Below, piece by piece: positions 24,622 through 59,512 of a DNA stretch of 64,000 bases. A model generated the notes under the pieces. That model was not told where the DNA came from and ran no database searches. It saw only the letters and a program-made list of their open reading frames with translations. The stretch lies in the NCBI GenBank assembly GCA_951406725.2, contig OX597828.1, positions 53,568,001-53,632,000 of the forward strand, read 5' to 3'. Position numbers and translations under genes: made by a program. This stretch comes from Octopus vulgaris. Lineage: Eukaryota. Within the stretch, counting starts at the first letter, position 1. The number at the start of each line of letters is the position of its first letter.

Positions 24622-24657
<36 letters not shown>

Positions 24658-24680
24658 CACATATATATATATACACATCA

Positions 24681-24748
<68 letters not shown>

Positions 24749-24819
24749 CACATATATATATATATATGGAAAATAAAGTCAAGATAGAAAATGCTAAAAT
24801 AATTTTATAAAAAACATTT

Positions 24820-24855
24820 CAGTACCGGTTTCAGTCATTGAGACTTTTTCAACTG
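24820..24855 (-). ncRNA. Minimal type I hammerhead ribozyme fold, U3-A8 core variant, in a PLE pLTR-like repeat (~24766-24930)
   Basis: Minus strand: cag-TTGAAAA-agtc(tcaat)gact-GAAA-ccgg-TA-ctg. Stems I and II pair, stem III is the palindrome ACCGGT. Confidence 0.7.
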
Positions 24856-25199
24856 TAACAATTAAATAATTAAATTTAGAAAAATTTAAACAAAAGTTTT
24901 TTTTAAAGAATATTTGTATAGTGTTCAAATACAAGTGGCATTTTCCTTGTTTCTGTCTGTCTCTGTCTCTCTTGTTTACTCTTGTGGGTTCGATACATAT
25001 ATATATATAAACTTAAATGTTGAAGTGAATCGAACGGCTTTTGTGTGTTTCTTAAATGGCTTACAAACACCTTCCACGCTGCAATTGTTTTCGTTCCAGC
25101 TCACGATCTCAGATCAAATCACTTGCTATGCGAGTACATCTCCTATATATATATATATATATATATAAGAATGAATGTTTTTATATATAATGAACGAGA

Positions 25200-27039: not shown

Positions 27040-27635
27040 CTGATGCAGTACCTATGTCATGATGCAGTACCATGCCCTGATGAAGTACCATGCCCTGATG
27101 AAGTACGAGGCAGTGGCATTCATGGCTTCTGATCTTAACTGCTTGGAAGTGATATAATGTACATGTTTTGTTTTAGTGTAACAGATGGCCGACGGCAAAT
27201 ATTCTGCTCCATACCACACATTTCTTTGTCAGTTGCTGGACAATAACCAGTTGAGCATGTCCCTTAGTGGCCTACAATATGTGCTTCATTGATCATGAGC
27301 AAAGGTAGTGGGGGAGCATCGTTAAAAAGGATTCTTTGGAGTTTAAATAAATCACCTCAGGTAAGATGGGTATTTCGTTCATAATCCTTAAGCAACCCTT
27401 ATTCAGGAACCTTTTGAGTGAGATGGGCTACTCGACCCGAAGACAATTCTAAGTGGGCCCCACTTGCAAAGTCATGCGGTGTTTCTCTTGATATGAGCTC
27501 ACCATGTTATGCACATATGATTGTAGTGCATGTGCCGAGAGTACCCTTATCAGACGGGTAGTCAGGATGGGTATATTGCGCTTCGTATATTTGTACCCTA
27601 GTGTCACTTTGATAGCATGCGTTGCACTGTCACTC
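27040..27635 (+). mobile_element. Family E element, diverged copy
   Basis: Reverse-complement homolog of 20201-20756; ends ...cactc-aataataat. Confidence 0.88.
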
Positions 27636-58765: not shown

Positions 58766-58842
<77 letters not shown>

Positions 58843-58870
58843 AAGTTTGTTTGGTAAAGCACGTGGGTGA

Positions 58871-59502
58871 ATATATAAGAAAATAGTAAAGTGTGAAAAA
58901 ACGACAGAAGGCTTAAATGTTAAAAAATATATATATTTGTGTCAAAATGTCTGGAGAATATTGGAAAAATTTTTTTTCCTTTCCTTAAAATGACATAATT
59001 TTAAAATTTTTAAAGAAATTACCGGTTTCGCGCAAAGCAACTACTGTCACAATTTTTAATCTTCCCATTTTACCAATGTGCTTTCGGATCATCAACACAA
59101 ATGAGACTGAACAAGGAAACATTCTTCATTGAAAAGTACAAACCCAGACTCAACCATCCGAACATACTGACACAGAGAAATTAACAAGGAAAAGGGAAAA
59201 AAAAAAAAAAAAAATTTTTAAGCGATTATCTCCCTTACACCGGAATAAATCACTTACTACCTCCCCTTATTTAGAAATCTCCTGGAAATAAAAACAACGA
59301 TAACTCCATGCAATATAAACATAACGTCACAAGAAATTTGAAAAGCTACACGCGAAACCGGTAATTTCTTTAAAAATTTTAAAATTATGTCATTTTAAGG
59401 AAAGGAAAAAAATTTTTCCAATATTCTCCAGACATTTTGACACAAATATATATATTTTTTAACATTTAAGCCTTCTGTCGTTTTTTCACACTTTACTATT
59501 TT

Positions 59503-59512
<10 letters not shown>
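58871..59512 (+). mobile_element. 5'-truncated Penelope-like insertion: inverted pLTR part, GIY-YIG C-terminus, pLTR
   Basis: ~161-bp near-perfect IR (58871-59032 / 59351-59511). Internal FLIFPFYQC...RLNKETFFIEKYKPRLN (stop 59182-59184). Ends in (TA)n. Confidence 0.88.
59331..59370 (+). ncRNA. Minimal type I hammerhead ribozyme fold, U3-A8 core variant
   Basis: aagaaat-TTGAAAA-gc(tacac)gc-GAAA-ccgg-TA-atttctt: 7-bp stem I, 2-bp stem II, palindromic stem III. Confidence 0.72.

Follow-up and report, generated by a model that had tools for sequence, protein, structure and literature searches.

A motif on the minus strand of the window (the whole 64,000-nucleotide stretch of Octopus vulgaris DNA that was analysed), at positions 24820-24855, is best explained overall, at a probability of roughly 0.8, as a minimal hammerhead with a U3-A8 core that lies in the 3' repeat of a Penelope-like retrotransposon (PLE) of the Neptune type and that would cut in vivo after GUA and have its ends re-ligated. 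The motif by itself is ordinary, and the interest rests on a junction record: elsewhere in the genome, U6 snRNA and the 5' halves of other hammerheads stand joined to copies of the element at the bond predicted to be cut. The record bears on whether PLE hammerheads cut in vivo.

The motif in the window and its host element

A reading made earlier from the letters of the window (the sequence-only reading) had placed a U3-A8 hammerhead at 24820-24855, and the minus strand, taken from 24855 to 24820, is as it described: cag-TTGAAAA-agtc tcaat gact-GAAA-ccgg-TA-ctg. The features of this motif, of the element around it and of a second copy in the window are as follows.

24820-24855, minus strand: minimal type I hammerhead motif, from the letters and a descriptor scan
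24855-24853 with 24822-24820, minus strand: hammerhead stem I, 3 bp
24852-24846, minus strand: core U3-U4-G5-A6-A7-A8-A9
24845-24833, minus strand: stem II
24832-24829, minus strand: GAAA box
24829-24824, minus strand: palindromic helix III, ACCGGT
24823, minus strand: A17
24823/24822, minus strand: predicted scissile bond (after GUA); at this bond, chimeras found elsewhere in the genome have U6 or the 5' half of another hammerhead attached
24768-24993, minus strand: 5'-truncated 3' end (pLTR/3' UTR, 226 bp) of a Neptune-type PLE, family F1; its 3' end lies 55 nt after the cut
24625-24767, no strand: (TA)n microsatellite on the 3' side of the insertion (target)
24994-25011, no strand: (TA)n on the 5' side of the insertion
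59331-59370, plus strand: homologous F2 hammerhead with a 7-bp stem I, a 2-bp stem II and the same core
59030-59504, plus strand: direct 5'-truncated F2 copy (GIY-YIG domain end, 3' UTR, hammerhead), ends approximate
58839-59032, minus strand: inverted F2 copy with an optional tail, beginning about 13 nt before the cut and without the 5' hammerhead half, ends approximate

UUGAAAA...GAAA fits the core N3-U4-G5-A6-N7-N8-A9 / G12-A13-A14, with positions 3 and 8 forming a Watson-Crick pair, U3-A8. The A15.1-U16.1 pair (A-CCGG-U) and an NUH cleavage triplet (GUA) are present, and stem II begins directly after A9, with no extra base between positions 9 and 10.1, in families F1, F2, F4 and F5. The usual G10.1-C11.1 pair is absent from the 24820-24855 copy, which has A-U instead; this pair is described as a tendency and no absolute rule in PMC3088659, where earlier work is cited for the activity of U3-A8 cores in vitro.

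A strict type I descriptor (stem I of at least 3 bp, stem II of at least 4 bp) matched the whole window once, at 24820-24855, and matched none of 100 dinucleotide-preserving block shuffles of the window. A looser descriptor added one window site, 59338-59363, and the scan confirmed that the core, ACCGGT and GTA are identical in the two window copies. Rfam scans of the window and of 24780-24960 returned no hammerhead match, a blank that is uninformative because Rfam also misses canonical tandem hammerheads of the same genome (L097, L099). We are almost certain that the motif is real. The monomer hammerhead fold is at +1.5 kcal/mol and the ACCGGU duplex at -8.3 kcal/mol, and function as a dimer would fit this unfavourable monomer fold and favourable duplex. 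In a cofold U3 pairs with A17, extending stem I; this register would be inactive and may slow cutting. Elsewhere in the window, at 27040-27106, a tandem 18-mer (3.7 copies) starts with CTGATGA, a hammerhead-core-like word, and the descriptor scan gave no full motif there.

The F1 copy in the window is a promoterless dead fragment. When the genome (2.8 Gb in 227 contigs, microsatellite-rich) was searched with 24766-24935, 1,705 first-look candidates were obtained, the best 40 at 95-100% identity. The whole motif is retained in 19 of the 30 closest copies; in 29 of 30 fetched copies the 3' end falls at a TA run 53-58 nt beyond the cut, and the 5' ends of F1 copies vary. A long F1 copy (L061) carries a decayed RT and a GIY-YIG domain upstream of the motif (RVT_1 E=0.0015, below the cut-off; GIY-YIG E=0.00012, above it), and an AGTC-type or near motif follows the same ORF in 9 of 20 further long loci. 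A sister subfamily (L136) has an intact frame of 784 aa, with the linker CGRPNCGIC (CX4CxxC) and a CCHH as CSGC...H...H; the linker of L046 is CGRSNCATC. The hallmarks of PLEs are present, namely an RT followed by a C-terminal GIY-YIG, 5' truncation, a fixed 3' end, tandem and inverted copies and an optional tail. Because the CX4CxxC linker and the CCHH match the marks given for the Neptune/Nematis clade (a CX2-5CxxC linker before GIY-YIG, plus CCHH; Craig et al. 2021, PMC8557442), we assign the element, from motifs only, to a Neptune/Nematis-type PLE.

Two further observations concern these elements. In the F1 lineage and in F2 alike, a conserved TTTTTTA heptamer marks the overlap of ORF1 with the RT-EN frame (L143 minus 1106, 5753; L136 2182; many of L175-L202; L218, L219, L221). 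This overlap is likely a programmed -1 frameshift, and a frameshifted ORF1 is noted for some PLEs in a figure legend of PMC8557442. In addition, the motif contains two ACTGAAA repeats, and the GAAACCGGT box that separates them has been lost recurrently, with microhomology (L244, L247, L250, L251, L266).

The second window copy belongs to F2, a young family with copies 99-100% identical and intact ORFs, and the layout of 58839-59032 and 59030-59504 is a typical PLE inverted arrangement. Within this insertion (58839-59504) the optional 40-bp tail is found on the inverted arm and none on the direct arm, and the arms are joined at a short CGC microhomology. An independent origin of the two window motifs was considered and rejected, the ORFs being homologous. 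Since the F1-lineage and F2 proteins are 52-59% identical, the motifs at 24820 and 59331 are homologues. The two had been called sequence-independent, which holds for their stems and fails for their families. The AT-rich ending that they had been said to share is weak: the A of 'tattttc' is missing from most relatives, and the distance from the cut to the 3' end is 55 nt here, as against about 140 nt in the family of the 59331 copy.

Conservation of the core and compensatory change in the stems

The genome was searched with the pattern TTGANAA-N7-22-GAAACCGGTA, and the reversed pattern served as control. The U3-A8 core with GAAACCGGTA gave 6,749 matches across several PLE families, as against 33 for the control, whereas C3-A8 gave 109, scattered. 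U3.G8 gave 224 matches, and a wider C3-G8 pattern gave 297, a number equal to its control that includes a 359-bp tandem retrozyme. On these counts a canonical C3-G8 consensus for the family was rejected, and U3-A8 is the state of the family, not a product of decay.

Among representatives, the stem I pairs are cag/ctg, gag/ctc, ttag/ctaa, aagaaat/atttctt, ttactt/aagtaa, gatat/atatt and aaccac/gtggtt. Pairing is best within the lineage concerned, and at most 3 pairs form between unrelated lineages; five stem I sequences that are unrelated to one another each find their best match in their own partner. Pair 10.1-11.1 is A-U, G.U or G-C within the F1 lineage and G-C in F2, F4 and F5, F5 being 88% identical to F2 and not independent of it. 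Compared at the level of families, stems I and II are kept paired by compensatory change. The sequence-only reading had proposed structure kept under sequence turnover in related (TA)n-inserting PLEs. The compensatory changes, the link to PLEs, U3-A8 as the family state and the chimeras at the cut site all speak for this proposal, which is qualified by a U3.G8 subfamily that amplified with a slipped stem I, described below.

Junctions at the predicted cut

In all, 79 F1 copies do not have the usual ten bases on the 5' side of the cut, and the flanks of 50 regions from them were read. In two (L249 and L267) the 3' end of U6 snRNA, confirmed with Rfam, is joined exactly at the predicted cut. A search from the U6 side gave 224 matches; among the 100 listed, 5 rows (4 loci) run into CTGAAAT and 1 into the F5 cut product (L274). 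With a pattern that allowed 31 junction positions (within 30 nt) of the F1-lineage tail, all five of the U6 3' ends found were at the predicted bond GTA|CTG, and a like-sized control window upstream of the motif had no U6 joins. The junction reads TTTTT|CTGAAAT, with five Ts and no microhomology, against the native CCGGTA|CTGAAAT. The chance of five hits at a pre-set position is, if they are independent, (1/31)^5 or about 3e-8; with three independent events it is about 3e-5. Including L249, six U6 loci are known at the F1-lineage cut, of which C2:153482664 rests on a 12-nt U6 match. Because the 3' partners of U6 carry different subfamily variants, there were several separate U6-joining events. 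U6 is near full-length in six chimeras, and the same junction is found in both arms of inverted insertions (L268, L273, L276, L277, L312).

Twenty U6 regions were fetched. Six of them have hammerhead-linked partners (F1 in three, F5, F6, F7), and the other 14 gave no match to any PLE locus collected. U6 is thus found at the predicted cut in three families beyond the F1 lineage, two of which were found blind: because of their inverted PLE layout, two U6 partners of unrecognised kind were predicted to be hammerhead cut sites, and both were then found to be hammerhead-like. In the first, U6 is joined at 2 loci and the native GAAACGATCGTA| precedes the junction point; in this family the CTGAAGA core is complete and stem I has 6 bp, the full box being present in only 2 native arms. 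The second (208 matches) is natively preceded by GTAAACCATGGTC or ACCAATTGGTT and has a palindromic helix III and an altered GAAA box; here the 3' half alone was read. In L277 and this 208-match repeat family the hammerhead-like box is GTAAA-CCATGG-TC, with a U that stands either inside the GAAA box or ahead of it; subfamilies have longer palindromes, and U6 is at the predicted cut.

U6 is not the only partner. At 2 loci (L256 and L268/269) the 5' half of another hammerhead, that of a retrozyme, ending GAAACTGCAGTC, is joined to CTGAAAT. The retrozyme-like family with ACTGCAGT has 527 matches, and its native continuation is CGTGCG in nearly all of the 100 listed, so that the retrozyme/F1 junction corresponds to the cut of both partners, with one base ambiguous. 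A third hammerhead-like 5' half is joined at the F1 cut in L298.

Other arrangements of U6 and of retrozymes were also seen. Most U6 3' ends are fused to what appears to be the 5' end of a SINE (judged by eye, some 70 among the 100 listed), U6-U6 head-to-tail dimers occur (L290), and a 7-copy U6 array lies at G000:C1:139.42 Mb. A retrozyme 5' half is joined at its own cut to another sequence at G000:C1:162632409. The 359-bp retrozyme occurs in tandem (L097-L122, e.g. G000:C1:20002278-20004542), and its hammerhead has the canonical C3-G8 core together with the ACCGGT palindrome that is also present in the PLE motif.

Hammerhead cleavage yields a 5'-OH and a 2',3'-cyclic phosphate. The 3' end of U6 consists of five U with a cyclic phosphate, which RtcB ligates to RNA carrying a 5'-OH, the product then being retrotransposed (PMC6789731); RtcB also circularises retrozymes (PMC7229834). 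The fusions fit hammerhead cleavage leaving a 5'-OH, followed by RtcB-type ligation; template jumping to a cut end may also have played a part. The reading of a ribozyme cut from junctions has a precedent in R2 (PMC3774820).

Probable cleavage and re-joining, and known systems

In the mechanism that we propose, the U3-A8 hammerhead would cleave PLE RNA in vivo after GUA, presumably slowly and as a dimer paired via the ACCGGU palindrome, and the short 3' piece released by the cut would carry a 5'-OH. This piece would then be re-joined by a cellular ligase, probably of the RtcB type, usually to a hammerhead 5' half and more rarely to RNAs with a 2',3'-cyclic phosphate end, such as U6 snRNA or a cut retrozyme. 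The RT of the element would start 55 nt past the cut, copy whatever stands upstream and insert at (TA)n. We hold cleavage in vivo to be quite probable on the evidence of the junctions. Its likely purpose, suggested tentatively and at slightly less than even odds, would be that tandem read-through transcripts are cut to unit length and may then be circularised, giving partial tandems; that it has a required role in unit-length or circular RNA is, likewise, a little less probable than its opposite. We lean towards the broader view that PLE hammerheads, U3-A8 forms included, cut in the germ line and that their ends enter the RtcB pool, allowing end swaps with U6, retrozymes and other PLE families as well as circularisation. 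The U6 junctions would then map, as fossils, where active ribozymes cut, and would reveal variants not yet recognised, GUAAA-CCAUGG-UC among them.

Against a strict need for cutting, nearly all copies span the cut site intact. The 3-bp stem I of the window copy and its A-U pair at 10.1-11.1 also count against the preferred reading. In an ordinary copy the sequence continues across the cut, which means that the template was either uncut or re-joined. Self re-ligation would be traceless and could account for the intact sites and the partial tandems; uncut templates could do so equally. Of 46 F2-type tandem junctions found, 44 were aligned; 30 of the 44 cross the cut and 14 start downstream, none within 5 nt of it, with no pile-up of 5' ends. 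For F1, roughly 30 of the 79, counted by eye, begin no more than 2 nt from the cut, which is about 1% of at least 3,163 tails, and the comparison with a control is swamped by T-run indels; about 25-30 of the 79 were left out of account as internal deletions or single-base indels. Contigs from four presumed-RNA runs cover the motif stretch, and those listed have no loose end at the cut, although contigs cannot show RNA ends. The U3.G8 core offers a natural test of the need for cutting. A young subfamily (L143-L146), which makes up 60 of the first 100 of the 224 U3.G8 matches and whose protein is 97% identical to that of F2, has a slipped stem I with no pair in register; it has amplified despite its core, with near-intact ORFs and many inverted pairs.

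Its amplification, together with the lack of a pile-up of 5' ends at the cut, favours the view that the hammerhead cuts but is a passenger or a brake, with cleavage dispensable for transposition and the chimeras arising as by-products of RNA repair. So do the one PLE reconstituted in vitro, for which PMC11167929 describes normal insertion by hammerhead mutants, the ribozyme being dispensable, and gives no RNA-seq ends at the cut, and the Naiad PLEs, which are described as thriving without canonical hammerheads (PMC8557442). However, the core and the paired stems are kept between families whose proteins are only 52-59% identical, and this needs selection on the element. Such a view shares the claim of catalysis and differs in purpose only; we regard it as possible but rather doubtful.

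It is improbable, in our assessment, that the fold is a signal for protein binding or dimerisation, and that a protein endonuclease cuts, or the RT stalls and jumps template, with no ribozyme chemistry. The U3-A17 pairing in the cofold, which draws stem I into the inactive register, would suit such a signal; U6 chimeras are known to arise by template switching (PMC11838501), and one PLE hammerhead is described as needing an element protein to cut (PMC11167929). A stall would nonetheless be expected at the foot of the stem, whereas the junctions are at N17|1.1 in families with a stem I of 3, 6 or 7 bp. Moreover, each 5' partner stops at its own cyclic-phosphate end, the two arms of the inverted insertions listed above share one junction, and a template jump would still require an RNA end at that bond. 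Lastly, a chance match in AT-rich DNA or the decay of canonical C3-G8 copies, for which the short motif, its 3-bp stem I and the Rfam blank could be invoked, is refuted by the shuffles, the genome counts against their control and the rarity and scatter of C3-A8, as well as being at odds with the chimeric junctions at the predicted cut, and its probability is negligible.

The reading that we prefer, a U3-A8 hammerhead that probably cuts in vivo and is re-ligated, belongs to a known class of ribozyme. Minimal type I hammerheads of metazoan PLEs, with a palindromic helix III and the U3-A8 core, were published in 2014 (Cervera and de la Pena, PMC4209133), the U3-A8 core being reported there in Schistosoma with about 1,300 hits. 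Like the PLE hammerheads of that study, the motif lies in a pLTR, has a palindromic helix III and AU-rich flanks, is found mostly in single truncated copies and has stems that covary by family. Unlike in that set, as it is described there, U3-A8 is here the majority (6,749 against the 297 of the wider C3-G8 pattern, itself equal to its control), N17 is A, the stems are very short, positions 9 and 10.1 have no added base between them, and the genome holds evidence of cutting. The same study describes low activity in vitro and states that in vivo evidence was absent, and PMC8557442 calls the function of PLE hammerheads 'still unclear'. Titles and abstracts were searched, with subscription papers largely outside the search, and gave no account of PLE hammerhead sites fused to U6 or to a retrozyme; the genomic record of cutting and ligation in vivo is, provisionally, probably new. 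Fixed chimeras provide base-exact evidence of such RNA ends in germ-line cells, joined to cyclic-phosphate RNAs. The search for a U6 end followed by a repeat is cheap and usable on any animal genome, and here, with no descriptor in use, it picked up two families that are hammerhead-like.

The PAc Poseidon hammerhead of Anolis (PMC11167929) is similar in that it lies upstream of an internal RT start in a PLE with two alternative 3' ends (tail); it differs from the motif described here in its C3-G8 core, which overlaps the start codon, and in that the account there has no in vivo ends detected. Non-LTR retrozymes (PMC7229834; bioRxiv 10.64898/2026.07.22.740005) share the type I hammerhead, the palindromic helix III, RtcB-type ligation and (TA)n flanks. 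They are present in the same genome, where they serve as chimera partners, but are short non-coding tandem repeats with a C3-G8 core, whereas the 24820-24855 motif belongs to an autonomous RT-EN element. The junctions themselves resemble the U6/LINE-1 chimeric retrocopies (Moldovan et al. 2019, PMC6789731), in which U6 is often full-length, ends in its U-tract, is fused 5' of the 3' part of a retroelement and has been retrotransposed. In the U6/LINE-1 case, as described in that paper, the junctions vary and the nuclease behind the 5'-OH was not identified; here one bond is used, and the element's own ribozyme would supply the 5'-OH.
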